From positions 1-7,153 of IMG/VR virus record IMGVR_UViG_2547132272_000010: a DNA stretch of 7,153 bases. One strand, written 5' to 3'. A model generated the notes under the pieces. That model was not told where the DNA came from, did no database searches, and worked only from the letters and a program-made list of their open reading frames with translations. Position numbers and translations under genes: made by a program. The stretch is from a virus. Its lineage: Duplodnaviria > Heunggongvirae > Uroviricota > Caudoviricetes. This document shows positions 1-7,153 of the stretch, in pieces (within the stretch, counting starts at the first letter, position 1; each line of letters begins with the position of its first letter).

Positions 1-22
1 CTAAATCAGTAAGTTGGCAGCA

Positions 23-295
23 TCACCCAATAACAGTATACTTTTTCATCACAATATCATCTTTCGAAGCATGAGAAATAATCTGGTTTGATAAAGTATA
101 CTTAAAAAATTTAGCAATATCTGGAGCGATAGGAGCTTTAATGATTTTAAAATCGAATTTATCAACAACTCTTGCGGTTCTACTCATACCCGCTTTAAGA
201 TGTCTAGTAATGAAATACAACGATATTTTCGCCGCATCATCATCCTTAAGTTGCTCAGCATACTCTAATAATTCTTCAAGCTTTAACATTTTCAT
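23..295 (-). CDS. Hypothetical 90-aa soluble protein; second gene of the AT-rich two-gene cargo operon
   Basis: ATG at 295-293 (verified), stop TGA at 25-23. Start overlaps the upstream gene stop in an ATGA arrangement (292-295), implying translational coupling. Same AT-rich composition as the upstream gene. No recognisable motif. Confidence 0.6.
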   Translation of the reverse strand: MKMLKLEELLEYAEQLKDDDAAKISLYFITRHLKAGMSRTARVVDKFDFKIIKAPIAPDIAKFFKYTLSNQIISHASKDDIVMKKYTVIG

Positions 296-906
296 TCCTT
301 ATGGGATTCAGCATAAAAAAGTTTTGGGCCCACGTCCTCAACATCAAGAAGATCATCTTCCTCCAAATACTTTGATTTAGTCAAAACCATACCAGTGCGT
401 TTTTTGTCGCTTTCTAAATCCAAATATGTAACTTGATATAAAGTATAATTAATACTTATTGTAGGATTTATAAGTATCATGCTTGAATTAATATATATTA
501 AAGCCGTTACCGTTAACAATATTGCTATTGGTATAACATTAGTTAAAGTGGATAGATCCTGAAATACAAACGGAATTATATATGTAAAAAGATAGCTTAT
601 TGATTCATTGTTTTTATTTTCAATATCTATAACTCTTACAGTTCTACCACTAGTGGCGCATCGACGTTTTATATTTTTTAAAAAAATTGTTAATCCTACA
701 ATACCAAATAATGATAATACACCAATGACACTGACCGCGCCAAAGTATTTAAAGAAAATAGTTAATGATTCAACACTTATACCTTTCCAATTTAAATAGC
801 TTCTATAAGTATACAATTGCACAAAACACATGATAAAGAATAGGGGAAGGTATGACACTATAAATAGCGAAACTCTAGCACCTAAATGTAGTTTATTTAC
901 TCTCAT
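292..906 (-). CDS. Hypothetical 204-aa integral membrane protein with four predicted TM helices and an acidic C-terminal tail; first gene of the AT-rich cargo operon
   Basis: ATG at 906-904 (verified). Hydrophobic stretches at about residues 12-32, 55-76, 102-115 and 123-147, then a hydrophilic tail rich in E/D/K. Very AT-rich codon usage unlike the neighbouring prophage genes. No catalytic motif recognised. Confidence 0.65.
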   Translation of the reverse strand: MRVNKLHLGARVSLFIVSYLPLFFIMCFVQLYTYRSYLNWKGISVESLTIFFKYFGAVSVIGVLSLFGIVGLTIFLKNIKRRCATSGRTVRVIDIENKNNESISYLFTYIIPFVFQDLSTLTNVIPIAILLTVTALIYINSSMILINPTISINYTLYQVTYLDLESDKKRTGMVLTKSKYLEEDDLLDVEDVGPKLFYAESHKE

Positions 907-1168
907 AACTACCCCACAGCCTACACGTCTAGTATTTTATGTTATTTCGAATAATTATGCATCAGATTACCATCCTACAATTGTGCATAAAACGAGCATT
1001 TTGCTGATTTTTCTGCGGATGCCTGAGACAGACAACCTCAAGCACCCGCAGCAATTCTACTTAACTCTCCTTTTCCCGCAAACCGTTTTTATCCCCATCG
1101 GCAAATCGAATACACCACCAGCGCCACCGCCATCGCAATTCCTACCGTGGTGAATGCCTCAGGCCGGG

Positions 1169-1792
1169 TCATTGATTCACCTCCTGCGGTGGTTCCGGTA
1201 GCGGCATCCAGTGAGTTGAGCTCTCTACTTCGACGCCGTCTTTGTCCACAAAAGCCATCTTATTCCCGCCACGAGTGGGGCAAAAAACCTTATCCCATGA
1301 ACCGGGGAATACATTCCCGAGATCATCGCGAAGAATCACATCGCAATATTCAGCAGGAACTGCATCACTACAGCTTATCCAGCCAGCCGGAGTTCCCGGG
1401 GAGCTGGTTGACGTTTCCGAGATTTCCCGAAAATTGTTGGTTGACGAATTCTTATTTTCCCGGAAGTTTCCGGCCTGAAGCATGGCGACGCGGCAGGCGT
1501 TCCAGCCATCAGCATATGTTTCAGTTACACCGTCGAGATGACAAGTAAGCAAATCCATTTCATCAGGCACTACCATCGCTGGCGGCGCTGCGTAAAGCGG
1601 TGTTATTTCTGCCCGAAAGTCACCTATTTCATGCAGTCGCACACACCGCTCGACTTCTGCTTTGTCAGAATACATAGTGGTGAACGTATTATATTCATTG
1701 TCAATTTGCGTGAAGGTTGCCTTCCACGCCACTGGCTCTGCTTCCAGTGATGCCAGTGCTATTTTGAATAACTCGCACTCTACCCATGCCAT
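1169..1792 (-). CDS. DUF551-domain phage protein (C-terminal ...GWIS...THWMPLPEPP motif)
   Basis: C-terminal HWMPLPEPP motif typical of DUF551 proteins in enterobacterial prophages. The ORF track extends to 1963 but that start is TTG, lacks an RBS and overlaps the 72-aa ORF; the first in-frame ATG is at 1792-1790. An N-terminal extension (to 1963) cannot be excluded. Confidence 0.65.
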   Translation of the reverse strand: MAWVECELFKIALASLEAEPVAWKATFTQIDNEYNTFTTMYSDKAEVERCVRLHEIGDFRAEITPLYAAPPAMVVPDEMDLLTCHLDGVTETYADGWNACRVAMLQAGNFRENKNSSTNNFREISETSTSSPGTPAGWISCSDAVPAEYCDVILRDDLGNVFPGSWDKVFCPTRGGNKMAFVDKDGVEVESSTHWMPLPEPPQEVNQ

Positions 1793-1874
1793 CTCTGAAT
1801 TGGGGTGACATTTCGCAACCGCTATTTTTAATTTGGCTTCTTCAATTAATTGTTCTTTGGTTAATTCAGTTATT

Positions 1875-2093
1875 TCAGTTTTCCTTATATGGATTAATTT
1901 TGTTGTGTAGCGCCCTGAATGGTTCCCATACCATATCGATATACAGTTCAACAATCGGCTCAAATATTTTTCCGATTATCCAAATCAGAAACAGCAGGTT
2001 TATCGGTATCATCAACACGATAAACAGAATGAGAAACAGAAATTCTGTTGTTCTACTCTTTCGCGGATATTTTTTTCTAAATAATGTGACCAT
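1875..2093 (-). CDS. Small (72 aa) single-pass membrane protein in an AT-rich islet; possible moron
   Basis: ATG at 2093-2091 (verified). Basic N-terminus (RKKYPRKSR) followed by a ~24-residue hydrophobic helix, consistent with the positive-inside rule. Weak RBS; AT-richness inflates hydrophobic ORFs, so confidence is modest. Confidence 0.4.
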   Translation of the reverse strand: MVTLFRKKYPRKSRTTEFLFLILFIVLMIPINLLFLIWIIGKIFEPIVELYIDMVWEPFRALHNKINPYKEN

Positions 2094-2187
2094 TCATTAC
2101 CGCCCTTTCAGGCGGCCTCCCGATGTTCTGAGGGTGCAGAAATCCCTCCGGTTAAGGATTAAATTTTATTTACAACACTAAATTTAA

Positions 2188-2742
2188 TTATTCAGGCGCG
2201 CGAATCTGTTCCGCACAATGCAACAATGCTTCTGTCACTTCCTTAAGCGTTACGGTATCGGCATCATCCAGTCCTGCAACTTTTGCGTGCCTGACAAACG
2301 CCGCGCGAAGCTCGTTAAACGCCACCGCCCGTACATCAGCCAGGAAAGCATCTGTAGCCGAGGTTTGCGGCATACCTCCGTCTGTTGCGCAGATATACGC
2401 ATCAGATAGTTCATCCTGCTCGCCATCAAACACGTAGCAACTCTGTACGATAAATTTATTCAGCTCCGCATTCTCCGCCGCAAGTGCAGCAAGATTAGTC
2501 TCCAGCTCTGCAATGCGTTTGCTTTGGGCTTCCCGTTCATCAAGCACTGCCAGCACGGTAGCCGGATTGGCTGCTGCTATGAATCGCTTATTGGCGCGAT
2601 TATCTGGTCCTGAGCATGATGCTATGTAGTAATTTGCGTTCAGTCCGGCATCAGCAATTAACCCATAATCATCAGAACACCATTCGCCAGGGGTTGCATT
2701 TTCTGCCGCCATTCGCAGTGCCTGGTAATTAATGTTGCTCAC
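2188..2742 (-). CDS. ead/Ea22-like family phage protein
   Basis: N-terminal ...[18 protein letters not shown]... resembles the ead/Ea22-like family, with a coiled-coil-like middle ([20 protein letters not shown]). The ORF-track start at 2772 is TTG; GTG at 2742-2740 is preceded by AGGAGG at good spacing and is preferred; ATG at 2712 is an alternative. Overlaps the upstream gene end. Confidence 0.65.
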
Positions 2743-3472
2743 TGGTTTCCTCCTGGCAAAGCTGGGCGACAATATCGCGATATTTATTCAGCTCCCGCAG
2801 CGCGCCACAGACTCGCTCCCATTTCCGGATATCACTTTTCGCCCGACGCAGTTCGCGGTTTGCCTGTCGCAGCGATGGCAGAACCAGATTATCCACTCGC
2901 TTCTCAAGCGGCTGCACAATGTCCGCCACAGTTTCTGTTTTAATATCTTCCTGTGTTGCAGCTTCCTGTACTGGTAACGCAACACATGCAGGCTGAGGAA
3001 AGGCTTTACCATCAGTTTCCGCTACCGATGCCGTTTTCGGCTCTGCTGGTAAATTACCGCCCGGCATGCAGTAACGAAATTTACCGTTCTGATTAACACG
3101 AATCAGACGACCTTTGCTGATTGCCATTGCCAGCGTTGAAGCCACTTTGCGGGATGTTGTACCGAACAGCGTAGCCAGTTCATCCGCCGTTTGTGATCCG
3201 CGTTGTTCAATCGTCGCGGTTAAATCGCACTCTGAGATTTTCGCTACTGTCGCCGTGGTGGTTTCTTCCGGCTGTTCTTCTGGCGCTGGCTGTTCCTGCT
3301 GAACGTTGTTATCAGCCACACGCCAGGTGTATACGCTTTTATCAACGAAGCCAGCCTTTTTCAGTTCCCACAGCTCGTTCAGTACTTCTTCACGACTGAT
3401 ATCAAGTCGCGCAGCCAGCTCTACCGACGTGGCTTTTCCCATCGCTTTCAGTGCGTCAAAAACAGTCTCCAT
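2729..3472 (-). CDS. Phage winged-helix protein, DUF1627-like (two wHTH-like segments separated by an acidic/Q-rich linker)
   Basis: ATG at 3472-3470 (verified), preceded by GGGAGG. N-terminal ...[28 protein letters not shown]... and a second HTH-like ...[28 protein letters not shown]... Family name is from memory, not a search. Confidence 0.7.
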
Positions 3473-3492
3473 AAATTTCCTCCCGGTAAAAA

Positions 3493-4239
3493 TTACTTTT
3501 CAATACCTGGCTGACCAACATTCGGGCGCCAGCTCTCCCAGTTAAAATTCACCCAGCGCCCGCCGTTCATGGTCATGCGATCCATAATCCGCTCGCCGAG
3601 CAATGTTTTCATGGCCTCATAGTTCAGGTTTGTCAGCATTCCCACGCTACGCATCGACGCTGTCCGTCGATCAATAATCTGGTGCAGTACCACCTGCTCG
3701 TTTTTCGTCTCGCGCTGAATGCCAATTTCATCAAGAACCAGCAGCTCCACTTCGCACAGTTCCCGCAAAAATTTTTCGCCTGACTGCCCGTCGTCATAGC
3801 TGGCGTGCAGGGCGCTCATAACATCAGCCACGGTAACCACAATCACTGTCTGACCGTCTTTCAGCAGGCGATTCCCGATAGCTGCCGCTAAGTGATTCTT
3901 CCCGGTACCAGGTTTTCCGCTGAATGCAAAATTTGTACACCCGGTCATCAGTTCATCGGCGATGGATTTCGCCTGGCTTAACGCGTATCGCTGGCCGTCG
4001 TTCTGCACCTGGTAATTCGCAAACGAGCATTTACGGTGCAACGGCTGGATGCCTGAGCGATTCAGAATTTTTTCCACCCGCAACTGGCGATTCAGGCGGT
4101 TGATCTCCTCGCTACGTTTCTGGCCTTCAGCAAGTTGCCACTCGCGCCACTCCGCAACCGTTCTGAATGGAGCGGTTACATGTGGTGGGGCCAGTCTGCG
4201 GATACGCTCCAGAACGCCTCCTGTCGCAATATTTTTCAT
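3493..4239 (-). CDS. ydaV: DnaC-like replicative helicase loader (phage P-equivalent), AAA+ ATPase
   Basis: 248 aa; Walker [18 protein letters not shown] (the GKN variant also found in E. coli DnaC), Walker B LLVLDEIG, and a C-terminus closely resembling DnaC (...GERIMDRM...). ATG at 4239-4237 (verified) with an upstream AGGGGG. Confidence 0.88.
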
Positions 4240-4245
4240 GGTCTG

Positions 4246-5034
4246 TTACCCCCTGAAGCCTGGCGGGATCGCACTGTCCGGCAACGAGACGGTGTTAACC
4301 TGTCGGAGCAACGTCTCAGGCCGAACACCTTTCGGCGCGAACAGGCCCTGGTATTCATTGGCGATGCTGTGTCGAATCACCTGCTCAGGTGTAAAACCCT
4401 GCTGACGGAATTTTTCCAGTTCCCGTATCGCCCCGTTAGCGCCCTGCTCCGTTCGAATCGGTTTTCGCAATGCCTGTCTGAACCGGACCCACTCATGCCA
4501 GAGTGTTTCCGGCAACCAATCGGGCAGCTCAATAGCCTCCGGCTCGAATTTTTTAGACGCTCGTTTTTGGCGAGGGGGATTTAGGGGGAGATCAGTATTT
4601 AGATCTTCCTCTTCCTCTTCCTCTGGTAACGCTTTTTGATCCGTTTGTGTAACGCCGGCAGCGTTACCTTTTCGTTTCAGTTCACGTATTTTTGTAACTC
4701 GCTCGTTTGTAACCGCCCGTTTTTTAGAGCTTTTTCCGTTATGGCGTTCAAAGTTAGGTAGAGAAAGCCCAACGTCATTTTCGACCAGCCATCCAACCTG
4801 AATTAACGCATCAGCAAAACCAGCCATAAAAGTGATGCGATCTATTGCACTTTTTGTAACGCCGCGAGCGTTACAATCTGCATTACCGTCTATCATTTGT
4901 TGATCCGCCCATGCCCAGAAGCGAATAACCTTCCCTAATGCGGCATCTGGATCAATATTCAGAATCTCAGCAAGCCTGAATATTTCCGGCTTATCCGGCG
5001 TAATAACCTCGAGCTTTATCCAGTTTGAAGCCAT
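4246..5034 (-). CDS. ydaU: YdaU-like replication initiation protein (lambda O-equivalent), two domains joined by an EEEEEE linker
   Basis: Sits between the CII-like gene and the DnaC-like loader, as O sits before P. ATG at 5034-5032 (verified), AAGGTGA RBS. Contains internal 21-bp palindromes and an acidic linker, as in ori-within-O genes. Family assignment is by synteny and memory. Confidence 0.75.
   Translation of the reverse strand: MASNWIKLEVITPDKPEIFRLAEILNIDPDAALGKVIRFWAWADQQMIDGNADCNARGVTKSAIDRITFMAGFADALIQVGWLVENDVGLSLPNFERHNGKSSKKRAVTNERVTKIRELKRKGNAAGVTQTDQKALPEEEEEEDLNTDLPLNPPRQKRASKKFEPEAIELPDWLPETLWHEWVRFRQALRKPIRTEQGANGAIRELEKFRQQGFTPEQVIRHSIANEYQGLFAPKGVRPETLLRQVNTVSLPDSAIPPGFRG
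4648..4668. repeat. 21-bp palindrome TGTAACGC-CGGCA-GCGTTAC(C), copy 1, inside the ydaU-like gene
   Basis: Read directly from the sequence. Flanked by further GTAACGC / TTGTAAC half-sites at 4626-4632, 4692-4698 and 4707-4713. Confidence 0.7.
4855..4875. repeat. 21-bp palindrome TGTAACGC-CGCGA-GCGTTACA, copy 2, inside the ydaU-like gene
   Basis: Perfect 8-bp arms; read directly from the sequence. Encodes NARGVT on the coding strand. Confidence 0.7.
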
Positions 5035-5046
5035 TTGTTTTCACCT

Positions 5047-5067
5047 TGTAACGCTCGCAGCGTTACA
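5047..5067. repeat. 21-bp palindrome TGTAACGC-TCGCA-GCGTTACA, copy 3, in the ydaT-ydaU intergenic region just upstream of the ydaU-like RBS
   Basis: Perfect 8-bp arms; lies about 13 nt upstream of the ydaU-like start codon, adjacent to the AAGGTGA RBS. Confidence 0.7.
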
Positions 5068-5111
5068 TTTAACTGATACCGAACAAAACAATCCGGCACG
5101 ATTAATTTCAA

Positions 5112-5534
5112 TCAATGCACTACGACAGAATCACCGGACGACCCACCACCGCTGAAATGTGCTTTCCGGTAAACGGCCTGGACTGCATCATCATGCGCAT
5201 CAATTGCCGTACTCAACGCTTCCTGCGCCGCCAGTAATGCACGGCGTTCCAGGGTATCGAAGATGCAGAGTCGGTGACGCAGCTCGCGCGGAAGAATTGC
5301 CAGAACCGCAGGGATCAGTGTCTGAATTTTTTCCCTTTGCGCTTTCGTTTCACCTTTTAACCAACGGTGATAGATGTTCTGCTGATTATTCCAGTCCTTG
5401 CCTGGTACCAGGGGCAATTCGCCGCCCCCCTGGCGCAGATATTCTTCAGTAATTGCATTGGCTACCCATGCCTGCCCTTTTTCAGCGGCCAGGGCTAACA
5501 GCACTGATTCGATGTGCTCATGCCTGATTTTCAT
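5112..5534 (-). CDS. ydaT: YdaT (140 aa), CII-like regulator / reported toxin of Rac-type prophages
   Basis: 140 aa, matching YdaT length; immediately downstream of the Cro-like gene and overlapping it by 17 nt. ATG at 5534-5532 (verified) with AGGAG about 9 nt upstream. Confidence 0.82.
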   Translation of the reverse strand: MKIRHEHIESVLLALAAEKGQAWVANAITEEYLRQGGGELPLVPGKDWNNQQNIYHRWLKGETKAQREKIQTLIPAVLAILPRELRHRLCIFDTLERRALLAAQEALSTAIDAHDDAVQAVYRKAHFSGGGSSGDSVVVH

Positions 5535-5793
5535 GAATCAACTCCTGTGCATTTTGTGTGTTAGCCTTACATCCAACAGGTAAACCATCGGTCGGATTCG
5601 GGTAGATATCAGGCCGGAGTTCATGAGGTGTAACCTCGAAATTCGTAGCCTCTGCGATACGCAATACCTTTTCAGGGCTTAACTGACTACGTCCAGTAGC
5701 AACGAGGCTAATCATTGATTGCGAACAACCAGCCAGCGCGGCCAAACAAGACTGTCGTACACGATTTTTTTTCAAATATTCATCTAATGTCAT
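5518..5793 (-). CDS. ydaS: YdaS, Cro-like HTH regulator (XRE/YdaS family)
   Basis: HTH segment QSCLAALAGCSQSMISLVATGRSQ and a ...TPHELRPDIYP... motif. The ORF-track start (ATG 5832) has no RBS; the in-frame ATG at 5793-5791 is preceded by AAGGTGA, so the shorter 91-aa form is called. Divergent from the repressor gene. Confidence 0.8.
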   Translation of the reverse strand: MTLDEYLKKNRVRQSCLAALAGCSQSMISLVATGRSQLSPEKVLRIAEATNFEVTPHELRPDIYPNPTDGLPVGCKANTQNAQELIHENQA

Positions 5794-5897
5794 AAGGGTC
5801 ACCTTAGTAATATTCGCCAAAATATTAACCATACTAATTTAAATGATCAATACTTATATCAGTTTGAGATTATGAGCTGTGTTCATAAGATGGTGGT
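5794..5897. promoter_or_regulatory. Divergent control region between ydaS (-) and racR (+), with two inverted-repeat operator candidates and predicted promoters
   Basis: IR1 TAATATT-N6-AATATTA at 5808-5827; IR2 TTATGA-N7-TCATAA at 5870-5888. Predicted minus-strand promoter for ydaS: -35 TTGATC (complement of 5845-5850), 17-nt spacer, -10 TAATAT (complement of 5822-5827), overlapping IR1. Possible racR promoter: TTGAGA-like -35 near 5865-5870 and TAAGAT-like -10 near 5887-5892. Confidence 0.5.
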
Positions 5898-6362
5898 ATG
5901 AGAAGAAAACGCGAAGAAATCGCATCGCCAGAAGCTACGCAGCGTCTACGCGGAATATGGGATGCAAAAAAAAGAGAGCTCAAATTGACTCAGGAGCTTG
6001 CTGCCGAGCTAATGGGCTTTGAGACGCAATCTACGGTTAGCCACTATCTCAACGGAAAGGCTCCACTTAACACTGATGCGGCATTAAAATTCGCAGTATT
6101 GCTAAGAGTTAAGCCTGAAGACTTGAGGCCTGATTTAGCTGATCTGATGAATTACGTCCGTTCATCTGGAACTTATGACGAAAGTTTCGAAGGCGAAGGG
6201 TGGCGGATGGTTAACAAGCAACAAGCTGATTTACTGGATCTTTTTGATATCCTCCCCGAATCAGAAAAAGCAAAACTAATCGAAAGGCTTAAAGGCCAGA
6301 ATGAACTCTACAAAGAAGCGTTTGAAAATATGCTGGCAGCTCAGAAACGCATGAAGAAATAG
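5898..6362 (+). CDS. racR: RacR-like prophage repressor (CI-equivalent), HTH protein
   Basis: 154 aa; HTH-like segment LTQELAAELMGFETQSTVSHYLNGK. Divergent from ydaS-ydaT, the classic Rac immunity arrangement. ATG at 5898 with stop TAG at 6360-6362, followed by an intrinsic terminator. Confidence 0.82.
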   Translation: MRRKREEIASPEATQRLRGIWDAKKRELKLTQELAAELMGFETQSTVSHYLNGKAPLNTDAALKFAVLLRVKPEDLRPDLADLMNYVRSSGTYDESFEGEGWRMVNKQQADLLDLFDILPESEKAKLIERLKGQNELYKEAFENMLAAQKRMKK

Positions 6363-6382
6363 CCCCCACTACCTCGTAACTA

Positions 6383-6407
6383 AACCGCCATCCCTGGCGG
6401 TTTTTTT
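6383..6407 (+). terminator. Rho-independent terminator downstream of racR
   Basis: Perfect 8-bp stem AACCGCCA / TGGCGGTT (6383-6390 with 6395-6402), 4-nt loop TCCC, followed by a T7 run (6401-6407). Confidence 0.85.
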
Positions 6408-6477
6408 GTCCCCTGCGCCCCCATCGCCTTACTTTTTTATCAAAAAAAACACTAAAATTTTCATTAGGATAGTACAT

Positions 6478-6540
6478 TTTTATCAACAAAATGCATATTT
6501 ATGTTGATCATCAATATGAATATAACTAATATTATTGCAG
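6478..6540 (+). promoter_or_regulatory. Putative promoter and operator for the ydaG-ydaF small-gene pair
   Basis: -35 TTGATC (6504-6509), 17-nt spacer, -10 TAATAT (6527-6532), the same hexamer pair as the predicted ydaS promoter. Inverted repeat ATCAACA-N13-TGTTGAT (6482-6508) overlaps the -35. AT-rich UP-like tract upstream. Inferred by eye. Confidence 0.35.
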
Positions 6541-6598
6541 AAGCAGCACGGCGCTGTAGGTTTTAGTTCCGCCACCCGGCGTTAAGGGGAGAGATAAG

Positions 6599-6733
6599 AT
6601 GGTGCATTACGAAGTAGTTCAGTATTTGATGGATTGTTGCGGTATCACTTACAACCAGGCTGTGCAGGCTTTACGCAGCAACGACTGGGATCTCTGGCAG
6701 GCAGAAGCCTCTATCCGCAACAACAAAATGTGA
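6599..6733 (+). CDS. ydaG: YdaG-like small protein (44 aa)
   Basis: ATG at 6599, stop TGA at 6731-6733; SD AAGGGGAG about 8 nt upstream. Translation MVHYEVVQYLMDCCGITYNQAVQALRSNDWDLWQAEASIRNNKM. Absent from the ORF track (below its size cutoff). Position downstream of racR matches Rac synteny. Confidence 0.65.
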   Translation: MVHYEVVQYLMDCCGITYNQAVQALRSNDWDLWQAEASIRNNKM

Positions 6734-6743
6734 GGTGCGAAAA

Positions 6744-6896
6744 ATGCAAAAAATCGACCTCGGCAATAACGAATCCCAGGTGTGCGGCGTGTTCCCCAAC
6801 CAGGATGGAACGTTCACCGCCATGACTTATACCAAAAGCAAAACATTTAAAACAGAAACAGGCGCACGTCGCTGGCTTGCCAGAAATACTTGCTAA
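6744..6896 (+). CDS. ydaF: YdaF-like small protein (50 aa)
   Basis: ATG at 6744, stop TAA at 6894-6896; SD GAGGTG 5 nt upstream. Translation MQKIDLGNNESQVCGVFPNQDGTFTAMTYTKSKTFKTETGARRWLARNTC. The supplied 6634..6825 ORF is in a different frame and lacks an RBS. Confidence 0.65.
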   Translation: MQKIDLGNNESQVCGVFPNQDGTFTAMTYTKSKTFKTETGARRWLARNTC

Positions 6897-7153
6897 TCCA
6901 TTATTTGGATTAATTCAATATTCTCGCTGTAGGGGTATAGCAGAAACCACCAAAGCCCGGAGGTGGTGAAATAAAACCGGGCACAACACGAAGGCGCATT
7001 TCCGATATCCATAAAGAGTCGGTCTTGTCTGTTAAATTTAAATGGTGGGAGTGCGCCTCCGGTTGTGAATAACAACACTGCTGTGTGTAGTCTTGGCGGC
7101 ATCAGTTTTTTCTTGAAGTTCGACTGATGTCCGCCCTTTTTAAAGTGAATTTT
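6893..7153 (-). CDS. 3' end of a minus-strand ORF running off the right edge; possibly a sieB-like superinfection-exclusion gene (partial)
   Basis: The reading frame is open from the window edge (7153) to stop TGA at 6895-6893, with no stop in my hand translation. Convergent with ydaF, stop codons overlapping. Identity as sieB is from Rac synteny only; the translation is not clearly protein-like. Confidence 0.3.
   Translation of the reverse strand, partial: KIHFKKGGHQSNFKKKLMPPRLHTAVLLFTTGGALPPFKFNRQDRLFMDIGNAPSCCARFYFTTSGLWWFLLYPYSENIELIQIMD

Follow-up and report, generated by a model that had tools for sequence, protein, structure and literature searches.

The window analyzed here is the whole stretch of 7,153 nucleotides at positions 1 to 7,153 of the viral record IMGVR_UViG_2547132272_000010, and forms the early region of an E. 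coli prophage of the Rac-like type. We examined the gene for its replication initiator together with three 21-bp palindromes that lie inside this gene and just upstream of it, and which an earlier note, made from the sequence alone, had proposed as a candidate origin of the lambda kind. At 4200-5900 the window was 99.7% identical to the chromosome of strain RM11911. The genes and sequence elements of the initiator locus are as follows.

4246-5034, minus strand: initiator gene, 262 amino acids, annotated as 'hypothetical'.
3493-4239, minus strand: ydaV, gene for a DnaC/IstB-like AAA+ helicase loader, directly downstream of the initiator gene and annotated likewise in RM11911.
5112-5534, minus strand: ydaT.
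4648-4668: site L, TGTAACGC-CGGCA-GCGTTACC, with one mismatch (last base C), in the codons for the initiator linker (codons 123-129, gene offset 366-386).
4855-4875: site N, a perfect TGTAACGC-CGCGA-GCGTTACA, in N-domain codons 54-60 (gene offset 159-179).
5047-5067: site U, a perfect TGTAACGC-TCGCA-GCGTTACA, in the space between ydaT and the initiator gene.
4626-4632, minus (gene) strand: half-site GCGTTAC, immediately 5' of the purine tract (GCGTTAC-C-AGAGGAAGAGG).
4693-4698 and 4708-4713, minus (gene) strand: two half-sites GTTACA, 15 bp apart, upstream of site L in gene orientation.
4604-4624, minus (gene) strand: polypurine tract AGAGGAAGAGGAAGAGGAAGA, the codons for P-EEEEEE-D (gene offset 410-431).
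4569-4603, minus strand: least stable stretch of the gene, with GATC at 4590-4593 and 4602-4605 and the sequence CCCCCTAAATCCCCC, in common with ydaU of K-12 Rac.

Over its full length, the initiator protein matched the profile of PHROG 2509, 'replication initiation protein' (E 8.5e-89), with residues 1-262 aligned to positions 1-277, and the same profile was matched by proteins of epsilon15, TL-2011b and VW-6S. The gene had been called ydaU-like, which held for the C-terminal ~120 residues only. The alignment with K-12 YdaU (64% identity over 179 residues, near-identical over the last ~90) started from about residue 96, and the N-terminal half was not of the YdaU type: K-12 YdaU matches DUF1376 at 2.7e-26, whereas the Pfam search of the initiator protein gave no match, including none to an N-terminal DUF1376. 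The C-terminal half also matched PHROG 6451, 18589 and 678. Since lambda O matches the N-part of PHROG 678, we read this as a YdaU-type C-domain fused to different N-domains in a modular O-type architecture, and N- and C-domains were indeed shuffled among the relatives of the initiator. The protein is laid out as a winged-helix-like N-domain (residues 1 to ~125), a disordered linker (~125-170) and a helical C-domain of the YdaU type. The AlphaFold (AF2) model was confident for the N-domain (helices 16-25, 29-46, 61-68 and 73-80, hairpin 84-91), with a loop of low confidence at 47-60, where the predicted local distance difference test score fell below 50 at 51-57. No homology was found between the N-domain and lambda O (HHalign probability 0.2%, BLASTP E 1.3), the comparison of its profile with YdaU likewise gave an HHalign probability of 0.2%, no relation to solved structures was found from its sequence, and Foldseek with the full-length initiator model returned nothing below E = 1. 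The ydaV product matched the Pfam families IstB_IS21 (9.5e-20) and Bac_DnaA (9.1e-08). The locus holds, in this respect, a two-domain initiator with a loader gene downstream, in which the N-domain would bind the origin and the C-domain would recruit the loader.

A scan of the window for TGTAACGCNNNNNGCGTTACA with up to 2 mismatches gave exactly three matches of the form TGTAACGC-N5-GCGTTAC(A/C), at 4648, 4855 and 5047, and none of 200 dinucleotide-preserving shuffles contained any match. GTAACGC occurred 9 times against 0.78 expected, with 7 of the 9 within 4626-5066, and TGTAAC had 11 occurrences where 2.67 were expected, two of them being the half-sites at 4693-4698 and 4708-4713. The three palindromes and extra half-sites of the earlier note are thus real and their clustering is not due to chance. 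Both of the copies placed in the coding sequence are there, but only the one at 4648 adjoins the EEEEEE codons, and the one at 4855 lies ~230 nt away, where it spells C-N-A-R-G-V-T in the low-confidence loop of the initiator. The third copy, site U, adjoins the ribosome-binding site of the gene as had been noted, ending 12 nt 5' of the initiator ATG and abutting AGGTGA. Site L and the three half-sites together span gene offset 321-408 in the linker-coding part, and the other full palindromes are 207 and 399 bp from site L. In 50 kb of RM11911 (prophage and host flanks) the palindrome, with up to 3 mismatches, was found only at the same three places, with half-sites elsewhere at background level; a palindrome that was common elsewhere would have spoken against an origin.

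The comparison with K-12 Rac showed that the sites and the N-domain are inherited as a single cassette. The window was 91% identical to K-12 Rac at 3023-4607 and 93% identical at 5114-5540, and the 506 bp between them (4608-5113) were unrelated. The N-domain codons, the purine tract and the palindromes with all their half-sites are in this cassette, which, as judged from the alignment, replaces the DUF1376 half of K-12 ydaU with an unrelated N-domain. K-12 Rac has ydaT (93%) and ydaV in common with the window and is without the palindromes. In an O157:H7 relative with a common stretch at 2769-5545, all three palindromes were kept (with changes only in a spacer) and the immunity genes differed from those of the window. 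On the strength of these two comparisons the sites do not follow ydaT, ydaV or the immunity module. The two Rac prophages are of the same type and gene order (racR, ydaS, ydaT, initiator, ydaV), with ~91% DNA identity in ydaV and in the part of the initiator gene that encodes the C-terminal ~120 residues. They differ in the N-domain, which is DUF1376 in K-12 and an unrelated, Pfam-less domain here, in the repeat motif, and in the site next to the ribosome-binding site, which K-12 is without.

K-12 ydaU carries a repeat of its own, TGTTCAAACA and its inverse TGTTTGAACA, in the linker codons and about codons 48-52, followed by an A-rich stretch. The copies were located at 3446-3517, 3662-3676 and 3747-3761 of a K-12-type Rac stretch, in linker codons and in DUF1376 codons near amino acids 48-52 and 76-81. 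Being laid out as in the window, this repeat family is a candidate for the sequence-level core of oriJ. The junction common to window 4569-4608 and K-12-type Rac 3375-3410 reads AAGATCTAAA(T/A)AC(T/A)GATC(T/C)CCCCCTAAATCCCCC and has two GATC sites. Because the K-12 homology starts exactly at the tract (4607), the purine tract may double as a recombination joint for swaps of the N-domain cassette.

The palindromes were found to travel with the N-domain in more distant relatives. A scan of IMG/VR for the exact palindrome gave at least 120 contigs, a set selected by the pattern. An N-domain homologue was encoded by 104 of the 120 listed, at identities between 31% and 100%, and its gene contained or adjoined the palindrome. 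Among the 61 distinct N-domain variants in the matches listed, the palindrome was at amino acids ~46-54 (N-domain codons) and ~114-130 (linker codons), the linker copy occurred in all three reading frames (0, 1 and 2), the arms were invariant and the N5 spacer was free. Some relatives had a second, tandem palindrome 23 bp away. A copy beside the ribosome-binding site was present only in the subgroup of at least 85% identity, with two loose analogues at -44 and -56 among the matches listed; its position was -33/-34 in relatives with identities of 83% and above. A corresponding scan of GTDB had the palindrome beside an N-domain homologue in 15 of the 120 matches listed; these loci included Shigella, Serratia, Rahnella, Photobacterium, Paraburkholderia, Dyella, Stieleria (Planctomycetes), Verrucomicrobia, Kiritimatiellae, Anaerolineales and Oscillospiraceae. 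One IMG/VR contig had three palindromes with identical spacers (TGTAACGCTCGCGGCGTTACA), placed exactly 193 bp apart (offsets -34, 159 and 352 relative to the ATG), together with a truncated open reading frame of 78 amino acids, which looks like a tandem duplication of the site N segment.

To have a set unbiased for the palindrome, relatives were also selected by protein, taking the best 80 (at least 71% identity) of at least 545 IMG/VR contigs with a relative. All three sites were present in 76 of the 80, the loop site in 80, the linker site in 79 and site U in 77. The mean minor-allele frequency in the arms was 0.018, compared with 0.127 for the spacers and 0.129 for the remaining third codon positions, so that the arms were ~7-fold better conserved than the spacers, a pattern that points to constraint at the DNA level. 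A tblastn search against isolated phages gave 59 records (epsilon15, SPN1S, TL-2011b, Xanthomonas CP2 and relatives, and phages of Ralstonia, Pseudomonas, Vibrio and Cobetia), and 16 of these were read in detail. Isolated phages with at least ~37% identity carried GTAACGC/GCGTTAC at the linker place and, except for SAC, at the loop place too. The neighbouring genes varied among the relatives, with a methylase, KilAC, peptidase or ydaT gene upstream and a DnaC-like, DnaB, P-like or no such gene downstream. As far as these gene neighbourhoods go, the N-domain is the only constant partner of the palindromes. Site U is, by its distribution, specific to the E. coli/Shigella subgroup, and in the GTAACG clade of loci selected by the tract (described below) it was present in 1 of the 28 listed. 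The spacing of ~200 bp is unlike the tandem iterons of lambda, as the earlier note had remarked in calling the layout unusual; what it missed is that this spacing is family-wide, because the sites sit in two structurally tolerant segments of the protein, the loop and the linker.

Distant phages carried other half-sites at the same places: GTCAC/GTGAC in Vibrio phages, GTAGAC/GTCTAC in Raharianne, and GTCCGC/GCGGAC in epsilon15, SPN1S, BUCT711, phiPSA1, Carin1 and RPZH3. Among the tract loci listed, the linker classes were GTCCGC (42 loci), GTAACG (32), GTCACG (16), GTAGAC (4) and GTCACA (2), with GGGGAC, GTCCCG and others at single loci. The loop class equalled the linker class in 24 of 30 GTAACG loci, 10 of 15 GTCACG loci and 1 of 3 GTAGAC loci, with one off-diagonal case. 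Two sites ~200 bp apart that switch together with the N-domain clade are best explained by a single reader, the N-domain. The palindromes would on this evidence be the initiator's own sites, since they are kept in relatives, their class switches with the N-domain, the neighbouring genes vary and the YdaT box is different. In the same loci, 3-5 half-sites within 95 nt 5' of the tract were typical of the family, and the 75 nt before the tract nearly always held repeated half-sites, typically two direct and then two inverted.

In 13 of the 16 phages read in detail the half-site cluster was followed at once by AGAGAAGAGAAGAGAAGAGAAGA or a near-identical all-purine variant, and AGAGGAAGAGGAAGAGGAAGA is the form that this family-wide tract takes in the window; SAC, Vibrio 1.211.B and Carin1 had purine-rich but interrupted versions. 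The identical 23-nt tract was found in phages of Salmonella, Xanthomonas, Ralstonia and Pseudomonas. Phage loci with 58-65% GC still carried the 23-mer, AGA Arg codons included, and where the peptide changed from EEKRRE to EEEEEE the purine-only character was retained, for which reasons we place the constraint on the nucleic acid. An argument from the reading frame of the tract was dropped: a 5-nt repeat gives the same cyclic peptide in all three frames. A scan of IMG/VR for the exact 23-mer gave at least 120 contigs, and in 90 of the 119 listed the tract lay in the gene of an N-domain homologue; in every case it was the coding strand that carried it, and its median distance from the ATG was 398 nt. 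Across clades the last half-site abutted the tract as GTTACC-AGAG, GCGGACC-AGAG or GTGACC-AGAG (the hyphen marks the junction), 1-2 nt before (AGAAG)n.

The remaining 29 of the 119 tract contigs had no N-domain homologue by tblastn, a few of them being cut by contig ends. Several of these had other short tandem repeats just 5' of the tract, and further initiator families may use the same tract. One group of tract-bearing contigs had an AT-rich upstream sequence (…ACTAGAGG(A/T)T…CTAG(A/T)AG…) and no obvious half-site cluster, and may represent another gene family, not related to the initiators, in which the tract occurs by coincidence. Within the initiator, residues 93-107 (codons at ~4714-4758), P-N-F-E-R-H-N-G-x-S-x-K-x-R-A, were near-invariant across clades that differ in half-site class, a conservation that parallels the purine tract and not the variable half-sites.

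From these comparisons we consider it likely that the palindromes are binding sites of the initiator and that 4569-4713 is the core of a lambda-type origin, with sites N and U as auxiliary sites. The lambda-like candidate origin that the earlier note had proposed in the initiator gene gains support from the cassette inheritance, the co-occurrence with the N-domain, the class switching, the linker offset and the purine tract. The 21-bp palindromes would be cognate sites of the winged-helix-like N-domain, and their dyad symmetry suggests that it binds as a dimer. The core origin would comprise site L, which we take as the core site, with the three half-sites (together 4626-4713), the tract at 4604-4624 and the least stable stretch at 4569-4603. 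By analogy with the lambda origin, initiator bound at the linker cluster would destabilize the adjoining purine-rich stretch, and the YdaU-type C-domain would bring the DnaC-like YdaV and host DnaB to it; the polypurine tract would then be the unwinding or helicase-entry element. The initiator would also bind the auxiliary sites N and U, through which the nucleoprotein complex could be extended or its DNA looped. In addition, site U could limit the read-through transcription that enters the initiator gene, and may in this way be autoregulatory, as the earlier note had suggested.

Several points weigh against this interpretation. The core has one full palindrome with half-sites and not four tandem iterons; the window tract is G/A-rich and not A/T-rich; and the dip in stability is modest (-34.7 against a window mean of -39.9, standard deviation 4.2). 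The GTCCGC clade is without the loop site (0 of 35 listed). The sets selected by palindrome or tract are biased towards carrying the pattern, and the genome-level scan for the palindrome was confined to 50 kb of the near-identical RM11911. Because unrelated regulators in other phyla use an identical palindrome, its sequence by itself is not diagnostic. A literature search found no paper on this initiator family and no binding or origin assay for it, and none with the tract or palindrome in a phage context.

The lambda origin lies in the middle of gene O and is made up of iterons and an AT-rich tract. In vitro, the two iterons closest to this tract are enough, and the tract is bound by O in single-stranded form (PMC7466680). 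In the lambda record, four iterons were at O-gene offset 348-432, as TCCCTC-N5/6-GAGGGA inverted repeats followed by ACAAAAGAAAAAAGAAAAGA. The candidate origin here is placed in the same way, inside the initiator gene, in codons of the linker that separates an N-domain, which would bind DNA, from a C-domain, which would recruit the loader. The individual sites are dyad-symmetric in both, the gene offsets are close (348-432 for the lambda iterons, 366-386 for site L), a purine-rich tract follows the sites immediately and the loader gene is directly downstream. However, the N-domains have no detectable sequence relation, lambda has four tandem iterons where the window has one full palindrome and half-sites, extra full sites are present here ~200 and ~400 bp upstream (in the loop codons and at the ribosome-binding site), the tract is a G/A repeat and not A/T-rich, and the loader is DnaC/IstB-like instead of P. 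The window has repeated dyad sites in linker codons, as expected of a lambdoid origin, and lacks four or more tandem iterons at ~20-24 bp. Directly downstream of the sites is an all-purine tract of 21 nt, G/A-rich rather than A/T-rich; next to it, starting at 4578-4596, lie the 30-mers with the lowest stability in the gene, although the dip is modest.

Iteron plasmids (RK2 TrfA, F RepE, R6K pi) likewise have a winged-helix initiator and repeated sites next to an unwinding element. Plasmid iterons are direct repeats of 17-22 bp that follow one another in tandem and are located outside the rep gene, an arrangement that was not found here, where the repeats are inverted, dispersed and inside the gene or at its start. 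The winged-helix Reps bind one strand of the unwinding element sequence-specifically, and repeats in the element are needed for activity (PMC4081077). By analogy, such one-strand binding offers a model for the invariant tract of the present family.

In bacterial oriC, DnaA boxes and DnaA-trios combine a double-strand site with a short-period repeat read as single strand at a fixed short distance. The last half-site here is similarly 1-2 nt before the (AGAAG)n tract. The protein family is another one, the repeat period is 5-6 nt instead of 3 nt, and reading of a single strand is hypothetical here.

An alternative is that the palindromes are only autoregulatory operators of the initiator or a partner and that the origin is elsewhere in the prophage. 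Site U adjoins the ribosome-binding site, dimer-type palindromes are typical of operators, and intragenic sites can act as transcription roadblocks. However, site U is limited to the E. coli/Shigella subgroup and the linker site is family-wide, and the linker site adjoins a conserved purine tract that an operator does not need. This is the one serious alternative left, and we consider it unlikely, as it assigns no function to the fixed junction with the purine tract at the lambda offset. A promoter at site U was also considered and was rejected: no promoter-like site was found in 4500-5200, which tells against operators too. The palindromes could instead be bound by another protein, such as YdaT, the RacR- or YdaS-like regulators or a host transcription factor, as they lie next to ydaT and the immunity region. 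Other proteins can read such a sequence, since the same 16 bases form promoter operators in Lachnospiraceae and Acidobacteria. Among the GTDB matches listed, ~41 were without the N-domain and were promoters of the form TTGACA-TGTAACGC-N5-GCGTTACAAT in Firmicutes and Acidobacteria, upstream of RelB/DinJ-like antitoxin genes (Lachnospiraceae, Clostridia) or of a gene for a conserved 255-amino-acid protein (Acidobacteria); most of the GTDB matches without the N-domain are accordingly not due to chance. In these operators the palindrome was between the -35 TTGACA and a -10 formed by its own end (GTTACAAT), with AT-rich spacers. With unrelated regulators using the sequence elsewhere, context and not sequence alone has to decide in this prophage, and the context points away from these binders. 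YdaT binds (A/T)TGATT-N6-AATCAA (PMC9986795, PMC11879457), which differs from the palindrome arms. A YdaT-type box, CTGATT-TTCATG-AATCAA, was found at 5524-5541 with the ydaT start codon in its spacer, a position described for K-12 Rac and CP-933P (PMC9986795, PMC11879457). K-12 Rac has ydaT and ydaV without the palindromes, the O157:H7 relative keeps them despite other immunity genes, and the site class switches with the N-domain clade. YdaT, RacR and YdaS were rejected as binders on the published YdaT specificity and the cassette comparison, a single host factor is unlikely because the hosts span several phyla, and we regard any binder other than the initiator as very unlikely.

Action of the palindromes at the RNA level, as hairpins affecting mRNA stability, initiator translation or termination, is highly improbable. 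Site U does form a hairpin of 9 bp (-12.6 kcal/mol) immediately upstream of the Shine-Dalgarno sequence, and a terminator-like score was obtained on the plus strand for site L together with the CTTTTCGTTT that follows it. However, the hairpin energy was ordinary (z -0.93, with 32 of 200 shuffles folding as well), one terminator-like match stood against 0.8 expected, the arms were invariant within a clade with no compensating pair changes, and every cluster included isolated or directly repeated half-sites, which are unable to pair. Hairpin and terminator were rejected, with energies and counts at chance level. It is barely credible that the repeats are non-functional, whether by chance, as a repeated or mobile element, or as joints left by module exchange. 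The K-12 Rac cassette boundary does lie exactly at the purine tract, and a conserved tract at a domain junction could favour recombination. Against this, none of the 200 shuffles matched, the arms were ~7-fold better conserved than the spacers, and position and class switching were conserved down to 31% identity. A repeat common in the host was rejected within the 50 kb of the near-identical relative, which had only three copies.

Returning to the initiator-bound, lambda-type origin, the kind of origin is known. What is new, as far as we found, is the origin of this initiator family, with its dispersed loop and linker sites and invariant purine tract. For a widespread type of Rac-like prophage, and for phages of the epsilon15, TL-2011b, CP2 and VW-6S type, the probable origin is hereby placed within ~150 bp, and with a candidate binding protein segment named it is directly testable. 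The gene would carry the sites of its own product in a disordered loop and linker, where the peptide (G-N-A…V-T, EEEEEE/REEKRRE) would be dictated by a DNA element, and this bears on how 'low-complexity linkers' are annotated and interpreted. The series of initiators and site classes with one invariant tract could serve as orthogonal replication modules and as a clean system for the evolution of winged-helix specificity.

We also raise, tentatively and as rather improbable, the wider proposal that the window is one example of a very large class of phage origins extending across phyla, in which switchable half-sites are combined with a near-invariant tract read sequence-specifically as a single strand. 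Such a class would have at least 8 half-site classes, written into loop and linker codons of the initiator gene, and, at a fixed distance of 1-2 nt from the last half-site, a tract of (AGAAG)n or (GAGGAA)n. The tract would then be more than a passive element for unwinding, and its reader would be the invariant basic segment PNFERHNG-S-KKRA (93-107) or the loaded helicase. If true, this would be a phage counterpart of DnaA-trios or of Rep one-strand binding and would make orthogonal origin/initiator pairs predictable.

The other genes of the window include, on the minus strand, an Ead/Ea22-like gene, a DUF1627 gene and a ydaS-like helix-turn-helix gene, and on the plus strand a racR-like repressor gene. 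In RM11911 the prophage lies at the Rac attachment site next to ttcA (15810-49901 of the stretch examined). It has terminase, portal-region and lysis genes and several frameshifted genes, and this type of prophage may be less decayed than K-12 Rac. The left end of the window (1-906) is AT-rich and carries a Kiwa defence pair on the minus strand. KwaA was found at 292-906 (PADLOC E 1.3e-101), and the open reading frame at 23-295 matched only the first 87 of the 339 KwaB profile positions and then stopped. Window 1-27 resembles what we take to be the terminal inverted repeat of IS1; if so, kwaB was presumably cut by an IS1 insertion.

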